Below the pieces are notes generated by a model that saw only the letters and a list, made by a program, of their open reading frames with translations, did no database searches and had not been told where the DNA came from. Shown here one piece after another: positions 9,821-27,047 of a stretch of 27,178 bases of DNA; the stretch's first letter is position 1, and every line of letters starts with the position of its first letter. Source of the DNA: Candidatus Thorarchaeota archaeon (GTDB lineage: Archaea > Asgardarchaeota > Thorarchaeia > Thorarchaeales > Thorarchaeaceae); the NCBI GenBank assembly GCA_020348985.1, contig CP070761.1, positions 2,712,109 to 2,739,286 on the forward strand, written 5' to 3'. Both the position numbers and the translations under genes were made by a program.

Positions 9821-11347
9821 ATGAAATCAGAAGACTGGGATTGGATAGGTGACTGGGCTGGCAGAAGAGCAATACTGACCCCCAAAAAAGAAGCCGTCTT
9901 TGACTCTGTCAGGAAGCGTAGGTTCAATTTCGCAGAAGTTGACTCCAGAGCAAATCAGCTTGCACGCGTTCTAATGAACCAGGGCATTGAAAAGGGAGAC
10001 CGAATCGCCGTCTATGCCAAGAATAGGTTCGAGTACTTTGATTTCTTCTTTGCCTCTGGGAAAATCGGCGCGGTTCTCGTTCCGCTCAATATCCGACTTG
10101 TCCCGAGAGAGCTTGAGTTCATGATTCGGAAAACAGGTCCATCACTCATTGTCTACGACTCTGATTTGAGTGAGCCATTCTCCTCATTGAGGGATTCATT
10201 TAAGGACACTGCGAGGATGGTCATGGGTGACAAAGCGATTTCTTCTGACAAATCTGTTGAACACCTGTTGACGAAAGTGTCATCGAATCCAGTAGAGCGT
10301 CCTCAACTTGCTTTCGATGATCCTTGTATGGTCATCTTCACAGGAGGAACCACTGGACTTCCCAAAGGCGCAATCCTTTCGCATCGTCTCGTCTTCTGGA
10401 ATTCTACAAACACACTGGTGTCCTGGGGTATTCGGCCGGATGATGTTCAACCGCTGCTGTTTCCTCTGTTTCACACAGGCGGCTGGAATGTTTTGGTCAT
10501 ACCATTCTTCCATATGGGCGGTCGCACAATCATCATGGGTGATTTTGATGCAAACGAGACTCTCCGTGTAATCGAATCTGAGAAGTGCACAATCGTCATT
10601 GGAGTTCCTACAATGTTTAACATGATGTCTCAGGCGAAGAGCTTCGAAGACGCAGACTTTGGCTCAGTTAGGGTGTTCATCAGTGGAGGAGCACCTTGCC
10701 CCGTTGCCATTATGGAGAAGTATTGGGCAAGAAACAAGCCGTTCAAAATGGGATATGGTCTTACAGAAGTCGGCCCAAACAACTTCTATCTACCTGAGGA
10801 TAATATCAAACGGAAGCCTAAATCAGTTGGATTCCCGGTTTTTCACAGTGACACAAAGATTGTCGACGCTGAGAACATGGAAGTGCCTGTTGGCAAAGTC
10901 GGTGAGTTGCTTCTGAGAGGACCTCATATCTTCTCGGGCTATTGGGATGAGCCTGATGAGACCTCGTCCGCAATAGAATCAGATGGTTGGGTCCATACCG
11001 GCGACCTTGCTTCAGTTGACGAAGAGGGATTCTACTACATAGTCGGACGCAAGAAGGAGATGTGGATTAGTGGCGGGGAGAACGTTTTTCCGTCAGAGAT
11101 TGAAGAGATTCTCTATCAACACCCGGCTATTCTTGAGGCAGCTGTCATAGGCATCCCTGACGACTTCTGGGGTGAGGTCGGAAAAGCATTCCTCGTGCTG
11201 AAGGAAGGCCTTTCGTTATCGGAAGAGGAGATTCGTGAATATCTTACTGTGAGACTAGCGAAGTACAAGATTCCCAAGCATTATGAATTCAGAGAGACCC
11301 TGCCGAAGAGTGCGGCAGGCAAGATTCTCAAACGCGACCTTCTATAG
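9821..11347 (+). CDS. Acyl-CoA synthetase / AMP-dependent ligase (long-chain or aryl acid type)
   Basis: FTGGTTGLPKG, PLFHTGG, GYGLTE, HTGD, GRKKEMWISGGENV, PKSAAGKILK. Confidence 0.92.
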   Translation: MKSEDWDWIGDWAGRRAILTPKKEAVFDSVRKRRFNFAEVDSRANQLARVLMNQGIEKGDRIAVYAKNRFEYFDFFFASGKIGAVLVPLNIRLVPRELEFMIRKTGPSLIVYDSDLSEPFSSLRDSFKDTARMVMGDKAISSDKSVEHLLTKVSSNPVERPQLAFDDPCMVIFTGGTTGLPKGAILSHRLVFWNSTNTLVSWGIRPDDVQPLLFPLFHTGGWNVLVIPFFHMGGRTIIMGDFDANETLRVIESEKCTIVIGVPTMFNMMSQAKSFEDADFGSVRVFISGGAPCPVAIMEKYWARNKPFKMGYGLTEVGPNNFYLPEDNIKRKPKSVGFPVFHSDTKIVDAENMEVPVGKVGELLLRGPHIFSGYWDEPDETSSAIESDGWVHTGDLASVDEEGFYYIVGRKKEMWISGGENVFPSEIEEILYQHPAILEAAVIGIPDDFWGEVGKAFLVLKEGLSLSEEEIREYLTVRLAKYKIPKHYEFRETLPKSAAGKILKRDLL

Positions 11348-11420
11348 ATTCCTACTCAGATAACCGAGAAATCCTTTTCAAATCACAAATTCTCGAATTA
11401 TAGAGAGGAGACGTCAAGCA

Positions 11421-13700
11421 GTGGACAGTCAGAGGCGTATGTTGACAAAGGTCATCATAGTGGTTCCACTAGCAATCTTGGCCACTTTCTTGGCTATTGA
11501 AGGAGCCCAGATTGTCTCAAATTCAAACACAACACGTGTCGGAGTGCACTCACTGCTTGCCTATTGGATATCAATACCTGCGGCTGTAAGTGTTCTAGCC
11601 AGTCGAAGACGATCCGCCTCTGGTGAGCTAGTATTCGTCTCTGCTCTCATAGTTCCGGTTGTGATCCACATCGGCAATGCAATGTACTTCCTACTGCAAT
11701 CCAGCAGCGAGATTTTCGTGATGTCTCCTTACGATACAATTGCAGACATCACCGAACTCACAATGCTCGGGTTGCTGTTTGCACTGGCTTCACTTCTTTG
11801 GACAGACTCCCGCCAATCCAGAGGCAACATAACTCAAATCGGCATAGTGGCCAGTGCGATACTTGTTCCTCTTGTAGTTCAGGGTGCAACCTGGAGTTTA
11901 GTACTTCCCAGCTTGAATTCATCATCTCTAGTAGTGTTCGGAGTTGTAACAGCAGCCATTGGCGCCTTTACCTGCTTTTCTGCCGCTCTTCTCTGTCCGA
12001 ATATAACGAGTAGTGAGTTGGAGATTGATTCCGGTTATTTGATGAGCAGTCTCCTCCTCATGGGGATCTCTTCTCTAATTCTGGGCATCATGATGATGTC
12101 CCCATCGGATGTTTGGATTATAGCAGAGGATCTGCAGATTGCATCATTCTTCTTGATTGCGCTTTCTATAGGTGTGCCGTTTCTGAAGGCTGCGGGATTC
12201 GGGCGAAGAACGGCCTACGTGATGATTATTGGTCTCGCCCTTCTTGCGTACCTGCCGTTTCTTGTTACAATCATCATAGAGTCGCTAGAACTTTATGTTC
12301 TATTAGAACCATTAAACCGACTGGCCTACTCGATTATTCATCTTGGCGCCGGTTCCTTGTCAGCTATGATGGCATACTTGCTGTATGCCTATTCGAAGAG
12401 GCACCCCTCAAGAAACCATTATCCATTGATTCTGACTTTCGGTGTCTGGACCGGAGTGGCCTTAGTTTCAGTATCCTCCGTTTTACTTCCGGATTTCAGT
12501 CCATTAGGCGAGCCGATTGTCCCCTATGTAGTAGGCAGTCTACTCACGTTGCCACTACTATATCTAGCCATTCGATGGACTCACCAGTTCTCAGAAGGTA
12601 GGACTCGCATGCTGCCCAGCTCTTCGGTTTTGATTGGATTCATTCTCCTATTTGTTACAATCTTGATTGGAGAGATAACCAACCAGTTGGTTCTTCAGAG
12701 GTACGGTGAGCTGAGTGGGCATCCTGCAAGTAACGCAATCCTATTGGCCTCCAACCTTCTAGCGATGTTTGCTTTCACTTATCTTGTATTGCTCTTGGCT
12801 CGTGAGGCAAAAGGGAGTCTCACCATTGAGATCTACGTGGTTGGCTTCCTGTCAATGTGGGTTATTCCAAATGTCTTGAAGTCATACTATCCAAGGTGGA
12901 CGCCAGGATGGTGGGTGTCAGAGATACTCATCTTCATCGGTCTTCTGGTTGGGCCTGGACTTCTAGGACTCCTTTACGCGAGGGCCATGCGGGAAGCAGA
13001 AGAGTCTCACTCACGGGCAAGTCTATACGCTGATCTAATGATGCATGACATTACCAACTACAACCAAATGACCATGACCGCTTTGGAGCTGCTTGGTGCT
13101 GAGGGTGTGCCTGACGAGGTCAGAGAGCGACTGGCCCGAGATGCTCGTCAGATTATATCTCTATCAGAACAGCTCATCAGCAACGTGCGTCTTCTCAGTC
13201 GCACAGAGAGCCACGAAGAGAGGACACTTGAACCAATGGACCTAGTTCTTGCAGTTGTAGGAGCCCTTGACGATGTGACGCAGGAAGTCGGAAGTGAGAA
13301 TGTAAGAGTTCAGTTCAAGCCAGAGCGTCACCAAGCCTATGTTATGGCAAATGAGAATTTGATTCATGTCTTCATCAATCTTCTCATCGACTCTTTACAG
13401 CATCCTCCAGAAAAGAAGACAATCTCTGTGGAAATCTCACCCAGCACTGTGAACGGCCAGGATTGGTGGCAGGTAAGATTTGGCGTGCCTGGTCGCTGGA
13501 TTGAACACAATAACCGTCCTACGCTCTTTGACCGAGAAGTTGGGAGCTACAGCGGAAGTGCATTGGGACTCCTGGTTGCAAGGCTTTTGGCTGAATCTCT
13601 TGGTGGAGTCGTGACGATGGAGGACAGAATACTCGGGGAGCTTTTCAAAGGAACTGTTTTTGTTGTGTCCTTACCTGCCTACAAAAAGCCCATTTGCTGA
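11421..13700 (+). CDS. Multi-pass membrane histidine-kinase-like protein with a degenerate HATPase domain
   Basis: About 14-16 hydrophobic segments over the first ~520 aa; H-box YADLMMHDITN; C-terminal HATPase-like region with G2 (GSALGL) and GTVFVVSLP, but altered N and G1 boxes. ATG 11439 is an alternative start. Confidence 0.8.
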   Translation: MDSQRRMLTKVIIVVPLAILATFLAIEGAQIVSNSNTTRVGVHSLLAYWISIPAAVSVLASRRRSASGELVFVSALIVPVVIHIGNAMYFLLQSSSEIFVMSPYDTIADITELTMLGLLFALASLLWTDSRQSRGNITQIGIVASAILVPLVVQGATWSLVLPSLNSSSLVVFGVVTAAIGAFTCFSAALLCPNITSSELEIDSGYLMSSLLLMGISSLILGIMMMSPSDVWIIAEDLQIASFFLIALSIGVPFLKAAGFGRRTAYVMIIGLALLAYLPFLVTIIIESLELYVLLEPLNRLAYSIIHLGAGSLSAMMAYLLYAYSKRHPSRNHYPLILTFGVWTGVALVSVSSVLLPDFSPLGEPIVPYVVGSLLTLPLLYLAIRWTHQFSEGRTRMLPSSSVLIGFILLFVTILIGEITNQLVLQRYGELSGHPASNAILLASNLLAMFAFTYLVLLLAREAKGSLTIEIYVVGFLSMWVIPNVLKSYYPRWTPGWWVSEILIFIGLLVGPGLLGLLYARAMREAEESHSRASLYADLMMHDITNYNQMTMTALELLGAEGVPDEVRERLARDARQIISLSEQLISNVRLLSRTESHEERTLEPMDLVLAVVGALDDVTQEVGSENVRVQFKPERHQAYVMANENLIHVFINLLIDSLQHPPEKKTISVEISPSTVNGQDWWQVRFGVPGRWIEHNNRPTLFDREVGSYSGSALGLLVARLLAESLGGVVTMEDRILGELFKGTVFVVSLPAYKKPIC

Positions 13701-13777: not shown

Positions 13778-14800
13778 TTGCAGTTACAGCAGATCGGTAT
13801 AGAGTCAATTGGAGTCTACATACCTAGTGAGCGGCACACCGCAGAGTACATCTCTGAAATGTCCGGGACACCAGTTGAGATTCTCAAAGCAAAAATGGGC
13901 CTGTTCAGTAAAGCAGTCCCTGGACCTGATGATCACACTGTTGCGATGGGTGTCAATGCAGCCAAGGTTGCGATTGAAAGAGCGGGCTTGACTCCCGAAG
14001 AGGACATTGACCTGGTAATCTGGGCGGGAGAAGTGCACGCAGAGCACCCAATGCAGACATATGCAATAAAGTTTCAGAATGAGGTTGGTGCGACAAAGGC
14101 GTGGGCTTTCGACGTCAACCAACGATGTGGAACGTTTATCGTTGGCATGATACTGGCCAAGTCATTGATGATCACCCAAGGCTACAAGAGAGTCCTGATT
14201 GGCAGCGGCTATAGGAATTCGGATTTGATTGACTACACAAACATCCGGACGCGATTCATGCATGACCTGGCTGCAAGTGGCGTAGCCATGATTTTGAAAG
14301 CGGACCATCCTGAAAACGTGATATTGGAAGGTAGCGTCATATCCGACGGACGATTCTCAGAGGACGTTTATGTGCCGGCTGGCGGAACAGTTCAGCCAAT
14401 GAGCTGTGAGGCGCTGGAGAAACGCTTGAACTATCTGGATGTGACGGACCCTGCGGCATTGAAGAAGCGACTTGACGAGTTGTCGATGCAGAACTTCCTA
14501 AGAGTCGTCGACGATTCTCTGAAACAGAGTGGATACTCGAGAAAAGACATCGATTATCTGGGATTGATCCGCATGAAACGAAGTGCGTTCGAGTTTGTCG
14601 CAAACGAGTTGGGAGTTGATCCATACGAGCAATCAACATACTTCACCGAATACGGTCACATGGGCCAAAACGATGCAGTTGTATCCTTGGAGGAGGGTCT
14701 CCGAGATGGGAGGATAAAGGATGGAGACATAGTTGTCCTTACTGCTGCGGGGATTGGATGGTCCTGGAACGCCATAACAATCAAGTGGGGACCTGCGTGA
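13778..14800 (+). CDS. KAS III (3-oxoacyl-ACP synthase III)-fold enzyme with a non-canonical active site
   Basis: GIESIGVYIP, AWAFDVNQRCG (Cys117), YLGLIRMKRSA, YGHMGQND, GDIVVLTAAGIGWSW; TTG start after GGAGT. Confidence 0.88.
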   Translation: MQLQQIGIESIGVYIPSERHTAEYISEMSGTPVEILKAKMGLFSKAVPGPDDHTVAMGVNAAKVAIERAGLTPEEDIDLVIWAGEVHAEHPMQTYAIKFQNEVGATKAWAFDVNQRCGTFIVGMILAKSLMITQGYKRVLIGSGYRNSDLIDYTNIRTRFMHDLAASGVAMILKADHPENVILEGSVISDGRFSEDVYVPAGGTVQPMSCEALEKRLNYLDVTDPAALKKRLDELSMQNFLRVVDDSLKQSGYSRKDIDYLGLIRMKRSAFEFVANELGVDPYEQSTYFTEYGHMGQNDAVVSLEEGLRDGRIKDGDIVVLTAAGIGWSWNAITIKWGPA

Positions 14801-14815: not shown

Positions 14816-15238
14816 ATGAAAGCTACAGAATACGAGGACATTGAGATTGGGCAGAGTGCAGAAGTCGTACGTACGATTACAGAAGATGACATCCAGACTT
14901 TCGGTGACTTGAGCGGTGACTACAATCCTCTTCACTTTGATGAAGAATGGGCTAAGACCACAATGTTTGGCAGCAGGATAGCACATGGTATTCTGACTGC
15001 CGCGTTCATCAGCACAGCGATAGGCATGAAGCTGCCCGGACCAGGGACAATCTACATGAGTCAGAAGATGAGATTCATGGGTCCCGTACGTATTGGTGAT
15101 ACAGTCACAGCCAGAGTGGAAGTCGTTCAAAAGGACGACACCAAGAAACGGATAACCCTGTCAACTGTCTGCACAAACCAGGATGGCGAAGTTGTCCTTG
15201 ATGGTGAGGCTCTAGTAACGCTCATGAAAATGGAGTAG
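14816..15238 (+). CDS. MaoC-family hotdog (R)-specific enoyl-CoA hydratase (PhaJ-like)
   Basis: FGDLSGDYNPLH (Asp/His dyad), RIAHG, LPGPGTIY, F..PV.IGDTV; strong SD AAGGAGG; 15 nt after the KAS III-fold gene. Confidence 0.92.
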   Translation: MKATEYEDIEIGQSAEVVRTITEDDIQTFGDLSGDYNPLHFDEEWAKTTMFGSRIAHGILTAAFISTAIGMKLPGPGTIYMSQKMRFMGPVRIGDTVTARVEVVQKDDTKKRITLSTVCTNQDGEVVLDGEALVTLMKME

Positions 15239-15282: not shown

Positions 15283-16545
15283 TTAGTCTTTTCGATTGTG
15301 AGATTTCACCTTGACGGACCTCAATACTGGCACGAGAACGAATGATGTACATATCATCCCCACACCTGCTACTATATAGACAAATCTGAGTGTGCCTGAT
15401 ATCTCCCAGAGAATCGCTCCAAACATTGCAGCGAAGATTGCAAGTGAGCTCATTATGAATGAATATGTGCCCAAAGCCCTTCCCTTTGCTTCCTCGGGAA
15501 CATTGGCCAGGAGCAGGCTTTTTTCGGCGCCAAGCCAAATGATGAATGGAATCGCCCATATGATGTTAAGGACAAGAAGGAGTGTTGCTCCGGTGCCGAG
15601 TCCGAAAGTGATGAACACAAATCCATTTCCACACACAGCCACCAACAGCGCTGCCTTTAGATTACGGTCAGTGAGGCTGCTAGCCGAATACATCAGAATC
15701 GCGCTAGCAAGACCAAACGCACCCCAAGTGATTCCGTAGAAGGGTGTGTCGACTAGCCATTCGTCAACAGATAGATTCCCTAGGTATTGGACTGCCATTG
15801 CCCAGCAGAAGTAGAAGCCTCCCATCCCTATTGCCATCTTCCAGAAGTCTCTGCCCATCTGCCGAAATGAAATGATTGGACCAGCTCTCGCTTTTTGGAT
15901 GATGTCGGACCCTAATGTCTCCTTTATGACCACAAGAGTGGCTATGCACGCGATAACCGCAGCACCCGAAGCAATCCTATGAAGATCTGTCGGCGTGTAT
16001 CCTGTACTCATCAAGAATGCACCAAGAAGCGGACTGACTCCATCGACAATCCAATGAGGGACCATTATCATCATGAATCTGCGAGCAGGGTTTCTACCAT
16101 CCTGGGCTATCTCATCTGCAGGTATGGCCCCCGACATGATTCGTGTAGTCCCTATTCCATACCACACTAGTCCATACTGCAACAACAGAAGCGGCCATGA
16201 CGGCAAGAATGACATGGTCAGCAGGCCCAAGAAGACCGGGACCAAACCAAAAGCCATGGTCCTTTTGCGCCCTATGAGATCAGCAATGGTACCGGAGACA
16301 AATGCAGCTATTAGTCCGGCGAAAGTTGCTCCAGAGAATACTAAACCCATCTGCCAGGGCTCAATGATTGTCTCTAGGAAAATGCCAAATTGCCACTTCC
16401 AAAGCCCTATGCTGAACTGCGCCACACCCATGACGAGTGCAACTCTCCATAGATTAGGACTCAAGCCAAGGAACTCTCTGAGCTCAAACCCTTCTTCTGA
16501 AGATGCGTCCGGTGACAAGCGGCCTTGGTCGTCCAGCAAAGGCAA
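15283..16545 (-). CDS. MFS transporter
   Basis: About 12 hydrophobic segments; motif A GTIADLIGRKR; C-half VPEEAKGRALG; TTG start after GGAG. Confidence 0.88.
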   Translation of the reverse strand: MPLLDDQGRLSPDASSEEGFELREFLGLSPNLWRVALVMGVAQFSIGLWKWQFGIFLETIIEPWQMGLVFSGATFAGLIAAFVSGTIADLIGRKRTMAFGLVPVFLGLLTMSFLPSWPLLLLQYGLVWYGIGTTRIMSGAIPADEIAQDGRNPARRFMMIMVPHWIVDGVSPLLGAFLMSTGYTPTDLHRIASGAAVIACIATLVVIKETLGSDIIQKARAGPIISFRQMGRDFWKMAIGMGGFYFCWAMAVQYLGNLSVDEWLVDTPFYGITWGAFGLASAILMYSASSLTDRNLKAALLVAVCGNGFVFITFGLGTGATLLLVLNIIWAIPFIIWLGAEKSLLLANVPEEAKGRALGTYSFIMSSLAIFAAMFGAILWEISGTLRFVYIVAGVGMICTSFVLVPVLRSVKVKSHNRKD

Positions 16546-16633: not shown

Positions 16634-16696
16634 TAACACATATCATCATATTTGGTGACTTCTGTACTGATTCAAGCGAGGCAGATAATCGTGTCC

Positions 16697-17620
16697 ATGG
16701 AGGCCGGTGAAGACGTACTACCACTCATAAGGATGAGAGTGGGATTCAGAAAGCCAGTGGAAGAGGTTTGGGATAGTTTCTTGGATTCGCTTATCATGCT
16801 TCAGTGGCTTGGTAATGAAATAAGCGGAGATTTCAAACCTGGGGGCTCAGTTAGATTCACAGGGAATAATGCTCCAACCACTTCAGAAATTGGGGACCAC
16901 TGGGATATTGAGCAAGTCCGAAAGCATCGTGCTATACTAGGCAGTTGGAGGATTCTTGGGGCTGAAACACTATTCATCCTTCGTTTTCGGCCCACCGAGA
17001 CCGGATCAGCTTTGGAACTCAAACATGGTGCAGTCCCAGAGTCCGCGAAGAGTTTCCACCTAGCTTCCCATTGGAACACACTTCTTGGAAACTTCAAGTC
17101 AGTCATCGAGCTCAGAAGCCCTGGAGTGCGCTTTGATTATTCGAAGTATCGTCCGCTCACACTCACTAGGTATGATCCAAAAGAGGTTCGTGTTAGTGTC
17201 TTGCTGAATGTGCCACCCTCACTTCCGTTTGATGTCTTCACCAATCCGGAGAAGCTCAGCAGATTCGTTCGAGCAGAGACTCCCGTAGTTGACAAGCAGT
17301 ATGCAGGTCTATACACATGGTGGGCCGAAGGCAAGGGTCCAGTTGTTATCACGAGTCTTGAACAGGAACGCGAGCTTGAGTTCTCTTGGGTATATGGTGA
17401 TGAACGAGAAACCCGCGTAAATATCAGATTCGAGCCTGTAAAGGATTCAACCCTTGTTACTTTGCATCATCATGGCTTCAATAGTCCCGAGGATGTCATT
17501 GGATATGACATTGGTTGGACTTCCATTCTGACTGAACTCAAACTGATCTGTGAGCTCGGCGATTCCGGGATTGTCAGACTCAGCGATTGGGAAGAAGAGG
17601 ACGATTCGGATTTCATCTGA
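16697..17620 (+). CDS. Tandem SRPBCC (START/Bet v1/AHSA1-like) domain protein
   Basis: Two repeats: PVEEVWDSF...LQW...F.PGG...GSW...LELKH...HWNTLLGNFK and PPSLPFDVFTNPEKL...FSW...ETRVNIRFEP...TLVTLHHHGF...GWTSILTELK. Start taken at ATG 16697. Confidence 0.8.
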   Translation: MEAGEDVLPLIRMRVGFRKPVEEVWDSFLDSLIMLQWLGNEISGDFKPGGSVRFTGNNAPTTSEIGDHWDIEQVRKHRAILGSWRILGAETLFILRFRPTETGSALELKHGAVPESAKSFHLASHWNTLLGNFKSVIELRSPGVRFDYSKYRPLTLTRYDPKEVRVSVLLNVPPSLPFDVFTNPEKLSRFVRAETPVVDKQYAGLYTWWAEGKGPVVITSLEQERELEFSWVYGDERETRVNIRFEPVKDSTLVTLHHHGFNSPEDVIGYDIGWTSILTELKLICELGDSGIVRLSDWEEEDDSDFI

Positions 17621-17624
17621 GCTT

Positions 17625-18467: not shown

Positions 18468-19864
18468 CTATGGATGAGCCCTCTAAGGATCTCCTCTGCT
18501 TTGTTGCGGATCTTTCTCATGTTCTCACCATCAACATAGCCATGAAGATGATTGAATGTGATTGTCAGTCTGCCACCCACGGTTATGACACCAAGAACGA
18601 TGTCAAATCCCATACCTGAAGTTGGCGCAAAGAAAGCCCTTTCGACTCGAATCCCCGGAACATCATTTGGCAATTCTATTCTTCCGAGATTGGTACTCAT
18701 GATGTCTGGTGTATTGCTTGCCATTCTTGCAATGAACTTTGCAGCTAAGCTTTCTTTCCGACCCGAGTATTCAGTCAGCTTCTCATGTCGGCTCTGATGC
18801 GGTTCAATCTGGTCACCAATGGATGAGATTACCATAGCATCCAGCAGTGTTTGGTCTAGGACGAAGTGATCTGAGACAGTGCCGAAGACATTGTTCTCGT
18901 CTAGATCCTTGGTGACAATCTTGTGATAGACTCGAACGTTTTCCCAGAAGGTTGCGTTCTCTTTGTAGTCGAGTTGGACAGATGATCCACCTGCATAGAA
19001 GCCAACTGCGTCACTGCAATCAACGCGCAATCTCTTTCTTGTGTCCACTGCTGTGGCAACCCTGGCTTTGCGATCATATGAGCCCACAGCTTCGATCCTT
19101 GCCCTAAGAATGGCCACTAGTATTGTGGAGTTGAGAGTGACATCATTTGCTCTGGAGACCTGGACAAGACTATTGGTTTCAATCTCATCAAACTCCATAA
19201 CTTCGTAGACATAGTGGGTGTTCTTCCAGGTTGCCTCCCAGATATTCAGCAAGTCTTCCTCGTCGAACAGTATTCTTTCCTTTGCCCACTTCTTGTTGAT
19301 GCGACCAATCATAGTGGACCTAAACCTGCCCATTGCCAGACCCTCTGGGAAGATTTCAGGTGTATGTGAGGGGGCTTCCCGTACCACTGGCGGCTCTCGG
19401 CCAGGATCCTTAAGGTGCAGTAGGATTTCTCTAAGGGCAAACTGGAGAGACCGGCCATCGCTAATCATGTGATGGCTCATTGCAATGAGTTCGGAAACAT
19501 CACTTCCCATCACGAGAACGAATCGTGTCAACGGACCAACCGATGGTCTCATCGGAATAGCAAACTCATGATTCAACACAGACATCCAGCTGTTGTCCGA
19601 AACCCTGGGGTGAACTTTCACGGGAACCTTGGCAGCACCCTCAGTCGTTGACCATTTGACACGCTCTTCGTTCCATTCCACTCTCACTCCAAATAGAGGA
19701 TAGGTCACAAGAAGCTTCTCAACCGCTTTCTCCATGGCTTCTCTAGTCACATGGCCTCGAAATCGCAAAACCAGTGAGATGAATGACGCCGGAGAAAACA
19801 GAAAGCGCCGTTCCTGACTTGTGATTTCTCGCTTGTATGGTATAATCTCTTGAGTAGTAGTCAT
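18464..19864 (-). CDS. Stand-alone condensation-domain / CoA-dependent acyltransferase (PapA5, alcohol acetyltransferase or WS-DGAT-like fold)
   Basis: SHHMISDGRS (HHxxxDG), YPLFGVRV, GPLTRFVL, SRANDVTLNS, AVDTRKRL, STNLGR, VITVGGRLTITF; 466 aa with no A or T domains. Confidence 0.82.
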   Translation of the reverse strand: MTTTQEIIPYKREITSQERRFLFSPASFISLVLRFRGHVTREAMEKAVEKLLVTYPLFGVRVEWNEERVKWSTTEGAAKVPVKVHPRVSDNSWMSVLNHEFAIPMRPSVGPLTRFVLVMGSDVSELIAMSHHMISDGRSLQFALREILLHLKDPGREPPVVREAPSHTPEIFPEGLAMGRFRSTMIGRINKKWAKERILFDEEDLLNIWEATWKNTHYVYEVMEFDEIETNSLVQVSRANDVTLNSTILVAILRARIEAVGSYDRKARVATAVDTRKRLRVDCSDAVGFYAGGSSVQLDYKENATFWENVRVYHKIVTKDLDENNVFGTVSDHFVLDQTLLDAMVISSIGDQIEPHQSRHEKLTEYSGRKESLAAKFIARMASNTPDIMSTNLGRIELPNDVPGIRVERAFFAPTSGMGFDIVLGVITVGGRLTITFNHLHGYVDGENMRKIRNKAEEILRGLIHS

Positions 19865-19881
19865 TTACTTCGAGTATTACT

Positions 19882-19914
19882 ATATTTCGTAACTTTTAAA
19901 TATTTGCGAAATAT
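19882..19914. promoter_or_regulatory. Inverted-repeat operator enclosing a bidirectional TATA box
   Basis: ATATTTCGTAA-N11-TTGCGAAATAT (10/11 symmetric); the spacer holds palindromic TTTAAA (19895-19900), 30 nt from both ATG 19864 (-) and ATG 19931 (+). Confidence 0.7.
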
Positions 19915-19930
19915 GCAATATCATGACAGA

Positions 19931-21067
19931 ATGACACTAGAAAAGATCAAACGCGAATTCGTTGACTACATGGAAAGGTCACGTGCTACCGAACCATATC
20001 CTCGTAAGTTCTTCGGGTGTTTGATTTCCATTATAATCGAAACTGAACCAACTAGTCAAGAACGAATTATGGAGTTGACCGGGTACTCTCAAGCAGCAGT
20101 CTCCCTGATACTCCAGAGAATTCAACTAGTAATGCCACTTAAGACTACACGAAAACTAGGAGATCGAAAACACTACTACGCATATGAGGGAACTCTTGAA
20201 GGTTTCATTCTCGATCTTTGGCAGAGGCGTCTAGAGGCGCAGGCCATTGACCCTGTACTTGTTGAAACAATGCTGCAGAAGGTCCGGAAAAAGGTTGACA
20301 ATGATCACGTCTTCGTGCGGTTCTTGGACTACCTTCAAAATGTTCAGCTCTACATGATTCTGGTTCAGGAAATGCGAAATGCTGCAATTGAGACATTCAG
20401 ACATGCCTCAGACACAGGATCTTTTGATACCCTGAGTCTTCAGGATGCTGAAGTTTTGGAGAAGGGGACGCTAGCAGACTTCCTGAGTATCTTCAGAGCG
20501 GCATCACTTGAATCTGATATTAACGATTCATGTTACGAAGATGCCTTGGAAGACTACACGCTTCTAAAGAGCGAGTACTTCACGAGCATAAAGACAAATC
20601 TTCCATCCCTCTATTCTCAAGCAGTTGCCAACCAGATTGTTGTGTTGCATGCTGTGATGCTTGATGGTTGTACCACTCAAGAAAGATTGGAGAAATCAAC
20701 TCTTCTTCCTAGAAGTACCATTTCTGAAGTGCTTGCGCAATCAGTGAGGGCGGGGATCGTAGAGGTCGTCAAAAAGGAGGGTTCACGAACAAAGTTGTAT
20801 CGTTCTAGGATTTCATTCGTTGGGTTTATGCTCAACTACTATGACCGTCTAGAGAGACAAGTGTCGGAAGGAACCGCGCGAATCTCAGAGTTCATTCAGT
20901 CCACTCGAAAGATACGTCCACAAACCAGCGATACGAAGAAGTTTCTAGATACTCTAAAGCGCCTTGAGAAGGCCTACTCATTCACTTTGAGGTTCTCCGA
21001 AAGCTCGAAGGTAGAAATGGTTACCAGACTAAGAGAAGAATATGCGCGTGGATTCGAGTTTGTTTAA
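19931..21067 (+). CDS. Transcriptional regulator with two GbsR/MarR-like winged-HTH units
   Basis: Unit 1 TSQERIMELTGYSQAAVSLILQRI...KLGDRKHYY; unit 2 TTQERLEKSTLLPRSTISEVLAQSVRAGIV...KEGSRTKLY. Start moved to ATG 19931, which removes the overlap with the divergent gene. Confidence 0.75.
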   Translation: MTLEKIKREFVDYMERSRATEPYPRKFFGCLISIIIETEPTSQERIMELTGYSQAAVSLILQRIQLVMPLKTTRKLGDRKHYYAYEGTLEGFILDLWQRRLEAQAIDPVLVETMLQKVRKKVDNDHVFVRFLDYLQNVQLYMILVQEMRNAAIETFRHASDTGSFDTLSLQDAEVLEKGTLADFLSIFRAASLESDINDSCYEDALEDYTLLKSEYFTSIKTNLPSLYSQAVANQIVVLHAVMLDGCTTQERLEKSTLLPRSTISEVLAQSVRAGIVEVVKKEGSRTKLYRSRISFVGFMLNYYDRLERQVSEGTARISEFIQSTRKIRPQTSDTKKFLDTLKRLEKAYSFTLRFSESSKVEMVTRLREEYARGFEFV

Positions 21068-21104: not shown

Positions 21105-21143
21105 AAAAAAAAGGAGAAGAGGGAAGGCTCGAATCGAACCTTC
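21105..21143 (-). terminator. Putative terminator of the solute-binding protein gene
   Basis: Minus-strand hairpin GAAGGUUCG-AUU-CGAGCCUUC (21143-21123), then CCUCUUCUCC and U8 (21112-21105). Confidence 0.65.
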
Positions 21144-22554
21144 ACCTTTTACGGAACCAGACTACTGCAATTATGACGACAACTAAAACTACGCCAACAA
21201 CCACCGAGATAGTTACGAGATCAAAGGCCGGTTGAATTGGTGTGTAGTTCGTGTCAATAGGAGGTGCAACTGAATTGCGGTCGAGAGTTTCAACCAATTT
21301 GGCAATGATGAAACCTTCAGTCTCAGATCCAGATTCGTTGTCACGCCAAGCTTCCGCGATATACATTTCCGCAAGCCCTTGATGGTCCGCTGGCCGTAGG
21401 TACGTTGATCCCTTCGGCGCGTTTATAGTAATGCCGCTTTCCAAGTACGTTATCATCGACATGCTGTCCAGACTAGGCACAGCATTTGTGACATCTACCA
21501 GGAATTGGGCTGTTGCAAATGCACTTGCGGTAAACAGCTCAGGAACTCTGTACTGTAATCCAAAGGCACCATTGGGCCTTACGTTTCTGGCAACATGTTG
21601 TTCCACCATCCAATCATTTACATCATTGTCTGGCAACTGGTAGCCATACAGACAGAGCCCGGTAGCACCAACATAGGTCGCTGGTGGCGTCATACCCGCT
21701 TCAATTATGTTCATTGAAAGTATGTCGATACATGCTCCAGCGATTTCCATGCTGTCCGCAATATTATACGTACCAAAGTCAGCGTACATTTCCGCGAAGC
21801 TTCCTGCCCAGATCACAAACAGATAGTCAATTCCAGTGGATGCATCTGCAGCAAGTATATTGGTCAACTCCGGACTGAAATCAGTTGTACCAAGAGCCGC
21901 ATATTCCTCGATAACCACAGTTCCACCTTTTTCCTCAATTACAGCTTTCATTGATTCAACGCCACTGTAACCAAAGGAATAGTCTGCTGCAAGAAAGGCG
22001 AAATTCGTATGACCAAGGGTGTCCATGGCATAAGTAACCCCTGCGTATGCATCATGCCAGTTGTTTCTCGCTATTCGGAAAACATACTGATTGAGCAACG
22101 ATCCAGTAAGCGATGCATCTGCAGCTGGGGTTATGAAGAACAGCTTCTCGTATGTTTCGGCAATAGGTACAAGGGCTGCAGCTACACTACTATAGGTGGC
22201 TCCAACCAGAATGTCAATGCCATCTGTTTCTATCGCGGTCGTCGCCAGTGATGCTGCTTCGGTCACATCACCCTTTGTGTCATAGTAGTGAAACTCGTAG
22301 TCTCGACCGGCTTGAGTCTTGTTCTCGTTGTCATACCCCATCTCCGTTGTAGCATATATCATTCCAAGTTCGAAGCCCTGTTTTGTCCATGGTGCATAAA
22401 ACGAAAGACTAGCTGTTGTGAAGGGAGCAAAGATTCCGATCTTGATTGGATCTGTGTCTTGAGCAACAGCTGGTGTATACATGAAACAGGGTAGGAACAT
22501 GGATACTATCAATAGCGCGGAGAAGGAGATTGTAAACACTCTCATCCTATACAT
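21142..22554 (-). CDS. LivJ/HAAT-type (periplasmic binding protein type 1) ABC substrate-binding protein with signal peptide and C-terminal membrane anchor
   Basis: Signal peptide ending in TPAVA-QD; PIKIG, YDTKGD...A, DILVGATYSSVA, PAADASLTG, YVFR, AADYSFG, TTDFSPEL, APKG...LRPADHQ; C-terminal VTISVVVGVVLVVVIIAVVW-FRKR. Start ATG 22554 after GGAG. Confidence 0.88.
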   Translation of the reverse strand: MYRMRVFTISFSALLIVSMFLPCFMYTPAVAQDTDPIKIGIFAPFTTASLSFYAPWTKQGFELGMIYATTEMGYDNENKTQAGRDYEFHYYDTKGDVTEAASLATTAIETDGIDILVGATYSSVAAALVPIAETYEKLFFITPAADASLTGSLLNQYVFRIARNNWHDAYAGVTYAMDTLGHTNFAFLAADYSFGYSGVESMKAVIEEKGGTVVIEEYAALGTTDFSPELTNILAADASTGIDYLFVIWAGSFAEMYADFGTYNIADSMEIAGACIDILSMNIIEAGMTPPATYVGATGLCLYGYQLPDNDVNDWMVEQHVARNVRPNGAFGLQYRVPELFTASAFATAQFLVDVTNAVPSLDSMSMITYLESGITINAPKGSTYLRPADHQGLAEMYIAEAWRDNESGSETEGFIIAKLVETLDRNSVAPPIDTNYTPIQPAFDLVTISVVVGVVLVVVIIAVVWFRKR

Positions 22555-22718
22555 GTTCTCTACTCCAATAGCATTGCCCCGTGTTTGGGCGACGCTAGAC
22601 TCACAGGCATAGAGCATCTATGCCAACCTTCGATAATTGGGTTCTAGACTATATATCTCTTGAGGAACCTAGGCCTGAAGAGGTAATCAAAACTAAGAGC
22701 CATATCATGAAGAGCTTG

Positions 22719-23513
22719 CTACGAGGAATGCTTCTGCAAGAAACTCAGAACTATCCTATTGAATTCGTCAGGCTTCTCAAATGTGACAGCATGTCCCGAG
22801 TCTGGAATAATGGTCATTTCGGAATTGGGTAGAAGATCATGAATCAACTTTGAATATGGATAAGCTGGTTTCAGTATATCCTTCTCACCAGCAATGACAC
22901 AAGTCGGTGTCTTGATTTGTGGCAATTGGTCTGTGATATTAAGCTTCAGAAAGGCATCAAGCAGATTCACCAGTGCGGGATACTCCAGCTGGGTATAGCG
23001 TTGTCTTGCCGCTTCTAGTAGAACAGTGTTCTCCTCAATGAAGGTTTCTCTGAAATTGAGTGGTACTGTGGCATAGTAGAACAATTCAGGGTCTCCAAGC
23101 ACACAGACGTATCTCCATAGCTGACACATGTTGTAAAGCAATGGTCCAACAAATGAAACCGCGCTGCATACAACGAGGCTCTTCAACAATTCAGGATACT
23201 TCAACGCAAAGACTAGGCCCAATTCGCCTCCGTAGCTGATTCCGACATGGTGAGCTTTGAAGACACCGAGGCTTTCCAGAAGGGCCTTTTGATCATCTGC
23301 ATGGAGATCGAAAGAGTATGGGCCATCCGGCTTGCCACTTTGTCCTTGTCCTCGCATATCATACAAAATCATCTGATAGTCCTTGGAGAACGCTGGTTGC
23401 TGATTCACCCAGCCCAGAGTATTGGAGAAGACACCATTTCCGAAGACTACTGGTTCACCGTCTCCATGGATCTCGTAGTATATGTCAATTCCATTTACCT
23501 TCTCGAATGGCAT
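22719..23513 (-). CDS. Alpha/beta hydrolase (esterase, lactonase or thioesterase-like)
   Basis: YDMRGQG, GISYGG nucleophile elbow, GEKD, SGHAV..EKP; starts 2 nt after the upstream ligase stop. Confidence 0.9.
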   Translation of the reverse strand: MPFEKVNGIDIYYEIHGDGEPVVFGNGVFSNTLGWVNQQPAFSKDYQMILYDMRGQGQSGKPDGPYSFDLHADDQKALLESLGVFKAHHVGISYGGELGLVFALKYPELLKSLVVCSAVSFVGPLLYNMCQLWRYVCVLGDPELFYYATVPLNFRETFIEENTVLLEAARQRYTQLEYPALVNLLDAFLKLNITDQLPQIKTPTCVIAGEKDILKPAYPYSKLIHDLLPNSEMTIIPDSGHAVTFEKPDEFNRIVLSFLQKHSS

Positions 23514-23515
23514 TG

Positions 23516-25066
23516 CTACTCCTCTTCCTGACCAAAGTCTTCCTGCAATCTCCTCTTCAATATCTTCCCTGCTGCTGAGATGTATGGTGTGAAACTATCC
23601 ACAAAGACGACCGATTTGGGGATTTTGAATTTGGCCAGTTTACCACTACAGAATTCGATTATCTCATCTCCAGTGGCATCTTGTCCTGAATCAAGGACTA
23701 TAATGGCACGTCCTACTTCGCCCCATTTTGAATCAGGCACGCCTATCACCTGTACTTGTGAAATCTTCGGGTGTTGTTCCAGCAGCTTCTCAATCTCTCT
23801 TGGATAGACATTTTCGCCCCCAGAGATGAACATGTCCTTGACCCGGTCTACTACGAAGTAGAAACCTTCGTCATCGAAGTAGACCATATCTCCGGTTCTG
23901 AACCAACCATCATCATCCAAGAGAGTCCTGTTCAGCTCCGGGCGGTTCCAATAGCCTATTGTGACAGTGGGGCCTTTGAACAAGAGCTCACCAACTTCAT
24001 TTGCACCGCACTCCTTTCCAGTTTCTGGATCTACCACCTTTGCATCTATGAAGAAGTTAGGTGTACCTATACTGCCTATTTTCCTCTCGGCATGCCAAGT
24101 ATCGAGAGCAAAGCAGCCAGGTCCAACTTCTGTCATTCCAAAGCCCTGTTTGAATTTGACACCGTGGGTCTCTCGGTATGTTGCGATGATATCCACTGGA
24201 AGAGGTTCACCACCTGATGTCAAGAAACGAACGCTGCTGAAATCAATTGATTCGAAATTAGGATGGTTCATGAGCATTCTGTATTGTGTGGGCACAGCAA
24301 AGAAGAAACTGGGATTCTCCGTATTGACTATCTCTATCAGTTTATCTAGATCCCAGCTCTTCATCTGCACCACCTTCCCCCCAAGTATGAAGAGGGGAAT
24401 TGCATAGACGTAGAGTCCTCCCACATGAAACAATGGCAGATGGTTAATGTAGACATCACCAGGGAGGATGTCCCGAATTGTACTCAAAGTATTGAATGCG
24501 ACCTGTCGGTAGGTAATCATTGCACCTTTTGGTAATCCTGTCGTACCTCCGGTGAAGACGATACCCATGGGATCTTCATAGGTGAGAGTGACTGGGTTGG
24601 GTGGACTGGTTGGCGCATTACTCATCAGGTCTTCGTAGACAAGAGAATCTTTCACGCCCGCTACCTCTGAATTCAGAGTGAACCAATTGTCAACGGCAAC
24701 CTCTTGTTGCAACTCAGATGCAACGCCGGCCAAATTCCTATCATAGAATAACACGGACGGAGCAAGATCAGTGATTAGGCCTGCCAATTCTCGGGCCACC
24801 AATCGCCAGTTAAGTGGGCTGAATATTCCTCCACACTTCTGACATCCAAAGAAGGCCTCCCAATATTCCAGGCTATTATGAGCTAGAATGGCTAGACGAT
24901 CTCCTTTCTTGAATTTCACAGTCTGCTGAAGGACGTTGGCAACCTGGTTCGCTCTCTCGTTGAATTCTCGATATGTCCGCCTCTTGCCAGTTTCCGCATC
25001 AACCAGAGCTTCAGCCTCCGGGGAGAAGACTTCCCTCTTCGACATGAAATCGAATTGACTAACCAC
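23516..25066 (-). CDS. Acyl-CoA synthetase / AMP-dependent ligase (second paralogue)
   Basis: FTGGTTGLPKG, PLFHVGG, GFGMTE, RTGD, DRVKDMFISGGENV, SAAGKILK; GTG start after GAGGG. Confidence 0.92.
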   Translation of the reverse strand: MVSQFDFMSKREVFSPEAEALVDAETGKRRTYREFNERANQVANVLQQTVKFKKGDRLAILAHNSLEYWEAFFGCQKCGGIFSPLNWRLVARELAGLITDLAPSVLFYDRNLAGVASELQQEVAVDNWFTLNSEVAGVKDSLVYEDLMSNAPTSPPNPVTLTYEDPMGIVFTGGTTGLPKGAMITYRQVAFNTLSTIRDILPGDVYINHLPLFHVGGLYVYAIPLFILGGKVVQMKSWDLDKLIEIVNTENPSFFFAVPTQYRMLMNHPNFESIDFSSVRFLTSGGEPLPVDIIATYRETHGVKFKQGFGMTEVGPGCFALDTWHAERKIGSIGTPNFFIDAKVVDPETGKECGANEVGELLFKGPTVTIGYWNRPELNRTLLDDDGWFRTGDMVYFDDEGFYFVVDRVKDMFISGGENVYPREIEKLLEQHPKISQVQVIGVPDSKWGEVGRAIIVLDSGQDATGDEIIEFCSGKLAKFKIPKSVVFVDSFTPYISAAGKILKRRLQEDFGQEEE

Positions 25067-25138: not shown

Positions 25139-26149
25139 TTACCACCATCGTAGGACCGCAGCAGCCATGTTGAATCCTCCTCCTGACGAACAGAGTGCAA
25201 CATACTCTCCGTTTCCCTGTCCTGGAGGTGGGAGCTTTCCTTGATCGATGGCATCGTACATCGCCAAGGCAATACATGCTGAACCAGTATATCCCCATTT
25301 GTCCATGACATTGTGAGTCCTCTCAAGGGGCATGCCTAGTTCATGCATAACGGCCTCAATAGTTCGTAGGTTAACCTGAGTGAAGAAGATCCAGTCAATA
25401 TCCTCGATTGAAAGGCCCGCTTTTGCTACGCAGTCTCTTGTCAGAATTGGCCAATGGTGAAGATTCGTGTCTGCAGGAAAGCGTTTGCGAAATGCTAGAT
25501 GATGTCTATGATTTTGGATTGCTTCAACTGTGGGTGGTTCTGCTGTTCCTCCCACGAAGACTCCCAGGTGGTCATGGAAAGAGCCATCGGCAATCAGTTT
25601 TGAGGCAATGAATCCTTCTTTTGTCTCATTGGCTCGCAGTATCATTGCTCCGGCAGCGTCAGCAAACAATGTACAAGTGTAATGATCAGTCCAATCGACA
25701 AACTTAGTCATTCCGTATGCACCGATTGCCAAGACTGAATCAATACTCGAGTCCGTTCTAATGTACCGAGAAGCTATGTCCAGAGATGTGACAAGACCAG
25801 CACACGCACAATTGACGTCGAAAGTCCCTGCATTCTTCGCACCGAGTTTGTGCTGAACCACCACGGATGTTGCTGGAGAAAGATAGTCCGGCGTGTCAGT
25901 GCTCAGAATGATTAAGTCAAGTTGATCGGCTTCCAATTCCGCATTCTCCAGTGCTTGAAGACCTGCATGCACTGCAAGGTCAGATGTCACCTCATCTTCA
26001 GCCATCACATGACGTTGTCTAATGCCAACGTTCTCTACCAGCCAATCTGCTGTTCCGGGACGATTTAGCATTTGCTCGATTTCTTCATTCGTCATCATCT
26101 TGTTAGGAACGTACATTCCCAACCCTGTGACCACTGCTGAAAGAACCAT
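25139..26149 (-). CDS. KAS III (FabH)-fold enzyme with a non-canonical active site
   Basis: VTGLGMYVP, GIRQR, STDTPDYLSPATS, FDVNCACAG (catalytic Cys), LFADAAGA, WIFFTQVNLR, WGYTGSAC, SSGGGF; ATG 26149 after GGAGGT (TTG 26152 is an alternative). Confidence 0.9.
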   Translation of the reverse strand: MVLSAVVTGLGMYVPNKMMTNEEIEQMLNRPGTADWLVENVGIRQRHVMAEDEVTSDLAVHAGLQALENAELEADQLDLIILSTDTPDYLSPATSVVVQHKLGAKNAGTFDVNCACAGLVTSLDIASRYIRTDSSIDSVLAIGAYGMTKFVDWTDHYTCTLFADAAGAMILRANETKEGFIASKLIADGSFHDHLGVFVGGTAEPPTVEAIQNHRHHLAFRKRFPADTNLHHWPILTRDCVAKAGLSIEDIDWIFFTQVNLRTIEAVMHELGMPLERTHNVMDKWGYTGSACIALAMYDAIDQGKLPPPGQGNGEYVALCSSGGGFNMAAAVLRWW

Positions 26150-26228
26150 CAATGATAACCTCCAAGTCTGATCATTAGAACAGATACTCTTCTCCTTCCC
26201 ATATCACCTTCACGGGCCTTGAATCGAT

Positions 26229-27047
26229 CTATCCTTTCTCCACGGAGTCTATAAATTCCATTACAGCATTGTTGACCTCTTCATACTTCTCAATAGTGAT
26301 GAAGTGTGATGCATTCTCTAGAATAATCAGTTTCGACTTGGGGATTGTCCTCGCCAACAACTCTCCATTCCTAGTAGGTACGGCAGAGTCACTATCCCCA
26401 TGGAGGATAAGTGTGGGAACCGTTACATTCCTCAATTCCGATTCAGAATTGAATTCACCTACTGCTGAAGATTGATGTACTTGTGCGTATAGTGGGGCAG
26501 GGTGCTGATTTGCCCACGTCTCCATTGACTCTATCAAAGACTTGCTTTCTTGGAGGAACTGTGAACTGAAGATTGCCCTAAAGCGCATCTCCGTGGCCTG
26601 CGCTCTAGAGATTGTCTCAGTGGGAATCGCGATTAACAAGGCCTTGGTCTTGTCATCTATAGGAACATGATTGGGTCCCCCAAAGTGGGTTGATACAAGA
26701 ATAAGACTTCGAACCCTTTTTGGATAGGAAATGGCGATTTGCTGTGCAATCAATCCTCCCATTGAGATTCCCAGGATGTGCGCTCTATCAATATCCAATG
26801 CATCCATCAGACCTACGACATCTTCAGCGAACATTTCAATTGAGTACGGATAGTCGGGCTTGGAGCTCCTTCCAGCTCCGCGATTATCAAAGACAACACA
26901 CCTGTATCGATTCCTGAATGCGGGAATCTGTCTGAACCATGTCCAACTGTAACTAGCCCACCCTCCAATCAGCACAAGTGGTGGTGCTTCAGGCGGTCCA
27001 TGAGTCTCATAGTAGATGTCGATTTCTCCTACGGGTTCATATGGCAA
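26229..27047 (-). CDS. Alpha/beta hydrolase (second paralogue)
   Basis: FDNRGAG, GISMGG, HGDSD, ASHF..EK. Start reassigned to TTG 27047 behind SD AGGTGA, giving MPYEPVGEIDIYYETHG, which parallels the other hydrolase (MPFEKVNGIDIYYEIHG). Confidence 0.9.
   Translation of the reverse strand: MPYEPVGEIDIYYETHGPPEAPPLVLIGGWASYSWTWFRQIPAFRNRYRCVVFDNRGAGRSSKPDYPYSIEMFAEDVVGLMDALDIDRAHILGISMGGLIAQQIAISYPKRVRSLILVSTHFGGPNHVPIDDKTKALLIAIPTETISRAQATEMRFRAIFSSQFLQESKSLIESMETWANQHPAPLYAQVHQSSAVGEFNSESELRNVTVPTLILHGDSDSAVPTRNGELLARTIPKSKLIILENASHFITIEKYEEVNNAVMEFIDSVEKG

Follow-up and report, generated by a model that had tools for sequence, protein, structure and literature searches.

A fatty acid synthase that is independent of acyl carrier protein (ACP) has been described in the archaeon Sulfolobus acidocaldarius, where it combines a thiolase/DUF35 unit, a short-chain dehydrogenase/reductase (SDR), MaoC and a reductase of the medium-chain dehydrogenase/reductase (MDR) type (bioRxiv 10.1101/2024.07.05.601840). 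Further points of reference are FabH, the β-ketoacyl-ACP synthase III (KAS III), with its relatives that use coenzyme A (CoA), the OleABCD and PqsABCDE systems, and the pim/bad/cou-type operons of Rhodopseudomonas palustris. Here we describe a stretch of 27,178 nucleotides from a Thorarchaeota-like Asgard archaeon (hereafter the window; C1:2712109-2739286 on C1, a single contig of 3.16 Mb with a marker-gene completeness of 86%), which holds two modules built around the KAS III-fold enzymes KAS1 and KAS2. An earlier reading of the same DNA, here called the original prediction, had taken some 17 kb of it for one ACP-independent system making or dismantling ester/amide lipids; in archaea, fatty-acid synthesis without ACP has already been demonstrated, with different enzymes (bioRxiv 10.1101/2024.07.05.601840). 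We favour, with some reserve, a different picture, in which the conserved part of the locus would be an importer-linked catabolic or salvage operon that handles a small acid as CoA thioesters, and not a membrane-lipid pathway.

Gene content was established by listing open reading frames (ORFs) and scanning them against Pfam and NCBIfam, and neighbourhoods were taken from public assemblies and from genomes of the same phylum, with a profile scan based on nine aligned sequences. All 14 genes that had been named are intact ORFs in their predicted positions, and eight of the 14 form a conserved cluster:

9821-11347, plus strand: LIG1, the AMP-forming acyl-CoA ligase that opens module A (AMP-binding 285 bits, with AMP-binding_C).
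13778-14800, plus strand: KAS1, a KAS III-fold protein of the family NF005308/PRK06840 (415 bits against a cut-off of 315).
14816-15238, plus strand: MaoC, the (R)-specific enoyl-CoA hydratase/dehydratase that closes module A (MaoC_dehydratas 100 bits).
21142-22617, minus strand: SBP, a solute-binding protein of the LIV family, last gene of module B (Peripla_BP_6 144 bits).
22719-23513, minus strand: HYD264, a cytoplasmic alpha/beta hydrolase with the motif GISYG (Abhydrolase_1 89 bits).
23516-25066, minus strand: LIG2, the second AMP-forming acyl-CoA ligase (AMP-binding 290 bits).
25139-26152, minus strand: KAS2, a KAS III-fold protein (ACP_syn_III and ACP_syn_III_C).
26229-27056, minus strand: HYD275, a cytoplasmic alpha/beta hydrolase with the motif GISMG, first remaining gene of module B (Abhydrolase_1 131 bits).

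The original prediction had made its wider bearing conditional on an Asgard host. The contig is indeed Asgard and without sign of chimerism, since KAS1 and KAS2 share 77-91% identity (KAS1 77-83%) with proteins from metagenome-assembled genomes (MAGs) labelled Thorarchaeota, the upstream order EamA, HtrA, PAS kinase, LIG1, KAS1, MaoC is found again on Thorarchaeota (Thor) contigs, and the GC content is even throughout the window. In the usual layout of the cluster, module B (LivG, LivF, LivH, LivM, HYD275, KAS2, LIG2, HYD264, SBP) is divergent from module A (LIG1, KAS1, MaoC), with the ATP-binding cassette (ABC) importer genes LivGFHM between or beside the modules. We found this layout in at least nine Thor contigs, in Hermod and Promethearchaeota MAGs (L005, L006) and in Heimdall LC_3 (L003), while in a Hodarchaeales (Hod) MAG (L007) the cluster genes lie on one strand up to LIG1 at the contig end. 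The predicted co-localisation of the two KAS modules thus extends across Asgard lineages, as judged by comparing neighbourhoods on Thor, Hermod, Hod and LC_3 contigs. In these relatives an ABC importer and its SBP are co-operonic with CoA enzymes, the mark of an importer-linked CoA catabolic operon. The host copy is rearranged, with module B downstream of and convergent with module A, and SBP is the only part of the importer that stays linked in the window.

Within module A, the nearest solved structures to LIG1 are feruloyl-CoA synthetase 8WEV (E 2e-103) and FadD13. In most of the Asgard loci that were examined the LIG1 ortholog adjoins KAS1, and in the others a few kb at most separate the two. 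KAS1 matches NF005308 over positions 3-337 of the 339 in the model and so belongs to this curated NCBIfam family, an uncharacterised '3-oxoacyl-ACP synthase' equivalog (PRK06840), for which KAS2, at 191 bits, falls under the cut-off of 315. No fused form of KAS1 was found among longer proteins, a negative of little evidential weight. MaoC retains an intact catalytic hydratase-2 motif, GDYNPLH, at residue 34; its ortholog is downstream of KAS1 in those Thor-clade loci that have enough flank, and upstream of KAS1 in LC_3. A protein of about 400 residues without a Pfam family is 44-57% identical across Thor, Loki-labelled and Hod MAGs (L016:6712-7920, minus strand; L002:14542-15717; L004:7232-8434). 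In genomes of these three groups it flanks module A together with a 259-residue alpha/beta hydrolase (L016:7993-8769, plus strand).

Within module B, both hydrolases carry a GxSxG motif, and no signal peptide was seen on inspection of their sequences. Their nearest structures are carboxylesterases, namely Est1 (6EB3) for HYD275, and for HYD264 the esterases MGS-M2 (4Q3L) and Est1, with PcaD (2XUA) also near; HYD275 scores under the cut-offs of the models for PcaD, macrolide esterase and polyhydroxyalkanoate (PHA) depolymerase. LIG2 is 41% identical to LIG1 and has 8WEU/8WEV and FadD13 as its nearest structures; KAS2 and KAS1 share 24% identity. The nearest structures to SBP are R. palustris binding proteins (3NND, 3N0X), and SBP orthologs of 52-74% identity close module B in LC_3, in the Hermod, Promethearchaeota and Hodarchaeales MAGs named above and in three further loci (L013-15). 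A second, more distant set of a similar kind is present at C1:2078234-2087110. Besides LivG/LivF-like ATPase genes it comprises an alpha/beta hydrolase with 31% identity to HYD275 and an AMP-ligase with 32% identity to LIG1; a KAS III gene was not detected among them.

In relatives LivGFHM lies directly upstream of HYD275, a place that in the host is taken by the oligosaccharyltransferase gene STT3. The host LivGFHM orthologs stand alone at C1:342837-346613, 2.37 Mb off, with no other cluster genes nearby; three of the four are 77-83% identical to their counterparts in relatives, and the LivM-like ORF has 418 residues against 580 in a relative. Neither the 259-residue partner hydrolase nor the protein of about 400 residues has an ortholog in the host genome, and foreign genes lie within and between the modules. 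All of this would fit a decaying or uncoupled remnant, with the remaining genes silent or in another role. We hold such decay to be improbable, as each of the eight core ORFs runs its full length without stops and has 64-90% identity to its Thor ortholog, the host still has intact importer genes at their distant site, and the SBP gene has been kept beside module B.

Both KAS proteins score above the Pfam cut-offs for ACP_syn_III and ACP_syn_III_C, which places them in the KAS III fold, and among solved structures FabH enzymes match both of them best (E 3e-50 for KAS2; E 1e-41 for the KAS1 profile). Neither has the canonical Cys-His-Asn triad of FabH. For KAS2 the alignment to FabH (2EBD) is unambiguous and puts Cys, Thr and Tyr at the three positions (C116, T257 and Y287 in the 336-residue form), all of them invariant in the Asgard orthologs and in a 35%-identical homolog from Rectinema. 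KAS1 keeps Cys117, has His294 in the FabH Asn column and Ile264/Arg265 at and next to the His column, with G293, H294 and D299 as family invariants. Arg265 had been proposed as the equivalent of the FabH His. By position this needs qualifying, since phmmer, the family profile and hhalign all pair FabH His244 with Ile264 and Gln245 with residue 265; what stands is that residue 265 is conserved in the family, being His in Hod, Hermod, Heimdall and most of the aligned bacterial representatives, and Arg only in the Thor clade. Residue 265 probably matters. In several bacterial relatives, including that of Thermoflexus, the KAS1 nucleophile is Ser, which would sit more easily with acyl transfer than with the chemistry of thiolases or classical condensing enzymes.

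As had been predicted, the window contains no ACP, phosphopantetheinyl transferase (PPTase), FabD or acyl-CoA dehydrogenase among its ORFs scanned with Pfam, and it lacks an SDR as well. Extended to the whole genome, the same expectation was borne out for ACP, no PP-binding domain (PF00550) being found, and failed for the PPTase, of which one AcpS-type enzyme is present (ACPS, 51 bits; C1:2807879-2808196, about 69 kb beyond the window; L027:1408-1860, minus strand), directly beside a gene for a 470-residue FkbH_N/HAD-like protein. Because of this PPTase, the lack of ACP in the host should be read as none detected with PF00550. No match to FabD (Acyl_transf_1) was found genome-wide, and there are only three matches to KAS I/II models, all weak (23-31 bits). 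Since PP-binding and FabD matches are lacking and those to KAS I/II are weak, an ACP-based role appears unlikely for the KAS enzymes. PhaC_N was also not found in the genome, and by that test the cluster does not belong to an endogenous PHA cycle.

To see how widely the cluster is spread, we surveyed 151 sampled Asgard genomes, counting KAS1 above the curated NF005308 cut-off. KAS1, and with it module A, is present in 41 of the 151, and KAS2 orthologs (module B) in ten; nine of these ten belong to the Thor family, and each of the nine carries KAS1 too. A genome of the same genus as the host (G005), 98% complete, gave no KAS1 match. The cluster is an optional accessory trait. Because KAS1 occurs without KAS2 in most carrier genomes, an obligate KAS1/KAS2 heterodimer is unlikely.

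Related clusters are also found in bacteria, with carriers that include Chloroflexota, Spirochaetota and Bacillota, and the idea of an archaeal speciality therefore has to be given up. The Thermoflexus cluster consists of TetR, hydrolase, ligase, SDR, hydrolase, ligase, KAS1, MaoC, SBP and ABC genes. That of Rectinema has a CoA-transferase, a KAS2-like gene and TetR, and divergently KAS1, SDR, SBP, ABC and two hydrolases, while that of Tumebacillus has an SDR, a ligase, a SARP regulator, KAS1, SBP, ABC, a hydrolase and an esterase of the polyhydroxybutyrate (PHB)-depolymerase family. Partial versions are seen on a Desulfobacterales-like contig and in Psychrobacillus. What the bacterial clusters add is SDR, TetR or SARP regulators, and a CoA-transferase replacing the ligases. 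Bacterial KAS1 homologs from two MAGs labelled 'bacterium' (L098, L103), Tumebacillus lacus (L108) and Psychrobacillus sp. L3 (L111) are 53-55% identical to the Thor protein. In a quick maximum-likelihood tree of KAS1, rooted on KAS2, the main Asgard clade (support 99) stands among bacterial branches, and the two 'bacterium' MAG sequences are nested within it, which suggests either two-way transfer or mis-binned contigs. Long branches and the quick search leave the details unsure, and the picture that emerges is one of inter-domain transfer, not of an Asgard invention.

Constant features of the clusters are an ABC importer with its SBP, CoA activation by ligase or transferase, cytoplasmic esterase-type hydrolases, MaoC and/or an SDR to process 3-hydroxyacyl-CoA, and one or two KAS III-fold enzymes that lack the residues for decarboxylation. 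A catabolic or salvage role fits better than biosynthesis because of the importer linkage, the enzyme set, the TetR regulators and the accessory distribution. The following scheme is inferred in its catabolic direction, in the order of its steps and in the part given to the KAS enzymes. SBP and the ABC importer would bring in a small carboxylic acid or an ester that bears a carboxylate, two esterase-type hydrolases in the cytoplasm would cleave the imported ester, and the two ligases, resembling FadD13 and feruloyl-CoA synthetase, would form the CoA thioester. MaoC would interconvert (R)-3-hydroxyacyl-CoA and enoyl-CoA, and the SDR of the bacterial versions would add a step between the 3-hydroxy and 3-keto forms. 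The KAS enzymes, which keep the nucleophile without the His-Asn pair for malonyl decarboxylation, could form an acyl-enzyme intermediate on CoA thioesters and carry out either a thiolase-like C-C cleavage or an acyl transfer (ester thiolysis), with the products entering acetyl-CoA/crotonyl-CoA metabolism. Of this scheme, uptake and CoA activation had been part of the original prediction and are the likely chemistry. The nearest solved relatives of the ligases, the hydrolases and SBP are generic and name no substrate, and literature searched by the PDB codes of the nearest structures held nothing useful on ligands. Two kinds of substrate would fit all the families, and both are speculation: (R)-3-hydroxyalkanoate oligomers, in view of the R-specific hydratase, of the SDR and of the PHB-esterase encoded nearby in Tumebacillus, and hydroxycinnamate-type esters, because of the relatives of the ligases and of the binding protein.

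Several observations weigh against such a catabolic or salvage role. Enzymes of the KAS III type usually act in biosynthesis. The Asgard clusters contain no dehydrogenase, so that a complete sequence resembling beta-oxidation cannot be read from the locus. The host importer is unlinked and two partner genes are gone, and the local copy may therefore work differently or poorly. Literature searches on Asgard FabH/ketoacyl enzymes and on KAS III homologues brought up neither KAS family nor such a cluster. Further, KAS1 outside the Thor clade has two His near the active site, recalling the Cys-His-His triad of KAS I/II, and the genome encodes an acyl-CoA carboxyltransferase that could supply malonyl-CoA, which leaves room for a malonyl-CoA-dependent condensation. 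Taken together, the Cys with two His in KAS1 from outside the Thor clade and this potential source of malonyl-CoA lead to the idea that LIG1, KAS1 and MaoC form a KAS III-based, ACP-independent module for acyl-CoA extension, which together with the SRPBCC/kinase-like pair described below would build an acyl or acyl-prenyl compound. We think this very unlikely; if true, archaea would have another route to fatty-acyl chains, independent of the one already known.

Also on the biosynthetic side, the SARP-type regulator of the Tumebacillus cluster is typical of secondary metabolism. It would suit the synthesis of a small specialised acyl metabolite, in which acids activated by the ligases are joined by the KAS enzymes in a non-decarboxylative or atypical way (Ole-, Pqs- or pyrone-like) and the hydrolases release or trim the product. 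The combination of KAS III fold, AMP-ligase, alpha/beta hydrolase and bacterial SDR does mirror OleA/OleC/OleB/OleD and PqsA/D/BC/E, and there are weak similarities to PqsC, CorB and OleA. However, a high-affinity ABC importer and SBP are operonic in Asgard archaea and four bacterial phyla, sometimes with two SBPs, and the bacterial versions have TetR regulators and a CoA-transferase. No Ole or Pqs model of NCBIfam is listed for the KAS enzymes, nor is one among the top 25 for each ligase and HYD275; matches to OleA score about 55 bits and extend over no more than the N-terminal 120 residues; and an extended-SDR OleD, a PqsE-type metallo-hydrolase and a conserved exporter are all missing. A role in metabolite synthesis is thus possible and, in our judgement, rather unlikely, and uptake followed by catabolism or salvage remains the reading that we prefer.

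The six remaining genes of the 17 kb are the following:

11421-13700, plus strand: a polytopic sensor histidine-kinase-like protein of 759 residues, between LIG1 and KAS1 (HATPase_c 38 bits, residues 645-753).
15283-16545, minus strand: a permease of the major facilitator superfamily (MFS), a lineage-specific neighbour (MFS_1 47.5 bits).
16652-17620, plus strand: a tandem AHSA1/SRPBCC protein (AHSA1, two stretches, 92 bits).
17625-18365, minus strand: a polytopic membrane protein of 246 residues, like polyprenol/phytol/dolichol kinases (CTP-dependent), with no Pfam match.
18464-19864, minus strand: a stand-alone condensation/PapA5-like acyltransferase with the motif HHMISDG (Condensation 39 bits, PapA_C 34 bits).
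19850-21067, plus strand: a tandem MarR/GbsR-like winged helix-turn-helix regulator (MarR_2 and TrmB matches under cut-offs).

The sensor-kinase-like and MFS genes are not parts of the conserved cluster; they are insertions. No homolog of the sensor-kinase-like protein lies between LIG1 and KAS1 in the loci compared, the sole one near the cluster being 41% identical and 3.4 kb upstream of LIG1 in a Thor MAG (L042); its N-terminal 530 residues resemble MASE3/MASE4 sensor domains (score 0.90, a lead only). Similarly, no MFS ortholog was found at the corresponding position of the related loci compared, and a paralog of 47% identity lies elsewhere in the host genome. The 246-residue protein has an Atlas feature score of 0.96 to clusters auto-named phosphatidate cytidylyltransferase or polyprenol kinase, with a structural TM of 0.79. 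Its gene is convergent with the SRPBCC gene, and the pair follows MaoC in many Thor-clade loci and not in other Asgard lineages. SRPBCC orthologs of 58-65% identity adjoin module A in ten loci (L001, L002, L013, L014, L016-18, L043, L045, L047) and in six more (L048, L053, L056, L057, L060, L061), and none was seen in the Hod, Hermod and LC_3 loci. The association of the pair with module A may reflect shared ancestry or functional linkage, which are not separable here.

The acyltransferase and the MarR-like regulator are an independent two-gene unit that does not belong to the KAS cluster, because the pair stands in unrelated contexts elsewhere, including two genomes without a KAS1 match (G134 and G149); in a third (G137) it is on a different contig from the cluster. 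About 10 of the family's 61 genomes have an acyltransferase ortholog (56-63% identity), always in another context. The acyltransferase gene is always divergent from the regulator gene; five other Thor genomes (L028-L032) preserve this pairing, in keeping with local autoregulation. The true start of the regulator is probably at 19931 (the Atlas record begins at residue 28), which puts the likely start codons of the two genes about 66 bp apart (window 19864-19931); the regulator has an Atlas score of 0.95 and a TM of 0.71 to Asgard clusters of about 356 residues with MarR_2.

In summary, the stretch is a mosaic of a conserved core, the inserted kinase-like and MFS genes, the SRPBCC pair and an unrelated acyltransferase pair. 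This bears directly on the claim that the whole 17 kb is one ACP-independent ester/amide-lipid system, with acid import, KAS condensation and the HHxxxDG acyltransferase, relevant to the origin of eukaryotes. The Asgard host, the lack of a detected ACP domain and the carboxyltransferase as possible malonyl-CoA source speak for it, as do the SRPBCC (lipid-binding-type) and polyprenol-kinase-like proteins that accompany module A in Thor genomes and the PapA5-like acyltransferase adjacent in the host. However, only the two modules are linked elsewhere, and the acyltransferase pair, the MFS gene and the kinase-like gene are not. The limited spread of the cluster among the Asgard genomes and its apparent absence from the same-genus genome also argue against a lipid system, as do the existence of bacterial clusters, the place of the Asgard clade among bacterial branches, and the loss of the FabH His-Asn pair from both KAS enzymes. 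The locus has neither a ketoreductase nor an enoyl reductase, and the demonstrated archaeal ACP-independent pathway uses thiolase/DUF35, SDR, MaoC and MDR reductase (10.1101/2024.07.05.601840). We therefore give a single lipid system scarcely any credence. Ester-lipid synthesis is unsupported, the importer-operon linkage elsewhere pointing to catabolism or salvage, and so is a bearing on eukaryogenesis.

Some further observations concern the surroundings of the locus. Methanofuran biosynthesis genes lie at 504-4952 of the window (MfnB, the 4-HFC-P synthase, and ATP-grasp, hydantoinase_A-like and amino-acid-kinase-like genes). They suggested a methanogen host, which was ruled out, as McrA was not found in the genome; methanofuran genes without McrA fit a Wood-Ljungdahl metabolism of the tetrahydromethanopterin (H4MPT) type over methanogenesis. 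Beyond the end of the window are STT3 (L008:224-2317, minus strand) and a 140-residue protein of the OST3/OST6 family (L008:5660-6082, minus strand), alongside glycine-cleavage H and T genes. The surroundings of the inserted genes showed no repeats and no mobile-element signatures. One long inverted match alone was seen, of 46 nucleotides (74%; window 14073-14118 and 25812-25857); it reflects the paralogy of KAS1 and KAS2, lying in their coding sequences shortly before the catalytic Cys, and is not a mobile-element repeat. A scan with bacterial-type promoter and terminator models, a type unsuited to an archaeon, gave nothing above chance. In public sequencing runs KAS1-MaoC matched only sediment metagenome DNA, with no RNA run listed.

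The interest of the locus lies in two conserved KAS III-fold families with rewired sites (Cys-Thr-Tyr; Cys/Ser-His/Arg-His) that are common to Asgard archaea and at least four bacterial phyla. Literature searches found no assigned reaction for either family. Their chemistry, once worked out, would give a new reaction type for a well-studied fold and name a nutrient of sediment Asgard archaea. For the question of the lipid divide the result is mainly negative, and the locus should not be cited to show that Asgard archaea synthesise fatty-acyl lipids.

Lastly, we return to the systems introduced at the outset. With FabH and its CoA-using relatives (PqsD, PqsBC, BioZ, CerJ, DpsC) the KAS proteins share the fold, the domain pair and the position of the nucleophile; some KAS1 relatives have Ser in place of the Cys, as does DpsC. 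They differ in the replacement of His-Asn (Thr/Tyr in KAS2; Ile-Arg/His in KAS1), in that no ACP was found and in their importer-operon setting; of the ACP, FabD and AcpS that a FabH-type system requires, the genome has only the AcpS-type PPTase, far from the locus. OleABCD also unites a KAS III-fold enzyme, an alpha/beta hydrolase and an enzyme of the AMP-ligase family, with an SDR matched in the bacterial versions. Here, in contrast, no Ole model is listed, the extended-SDR OleD is lacking, an importer is present and the catalytic residues are other ones; OleA structures match KAS2 over residues 21-143 only, and the window has no reductase. The locus is also not of the PqsABCDE type, as the KAS triad is missing, matches to PqsC/PqsD are weak (40-110 bits), and the cluster hydrolases have the alpha/beta fold and not the metallo-beta-lactamase fold of PqsE. 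The Sulfolobus synthase is likewise archaeal, works on CoA esters without ACP and has a MaoC-type (R)-specific dehydratase. It condenses with thiolase and DUF35 and requires a ketoreductase and an enoyl reductase, whereas here the fold is that of KAS III, both reductases are absent from the locus, and MaoC is the only component in common. The cluster is thus none of Ole, Pqs and the Sulfolobus synthase. The pim/bad/cou-type operons of R. palustris share with the cluster a LIV-family SBP, an ABC importer, one or more acyl-CoA ligases and a hydratase, and with its bacterial versions also an SDR and TetR. The cluster differs from them in having a KAS III-fold enzyme in the place of the thiolase, two esterase-type hydrolases and no acyl-CoA dehydrogenase. 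By this comparison, the cluster would appear to work most like the importer-linked, CoA-dependent operons by which bacteria catabolise acids.

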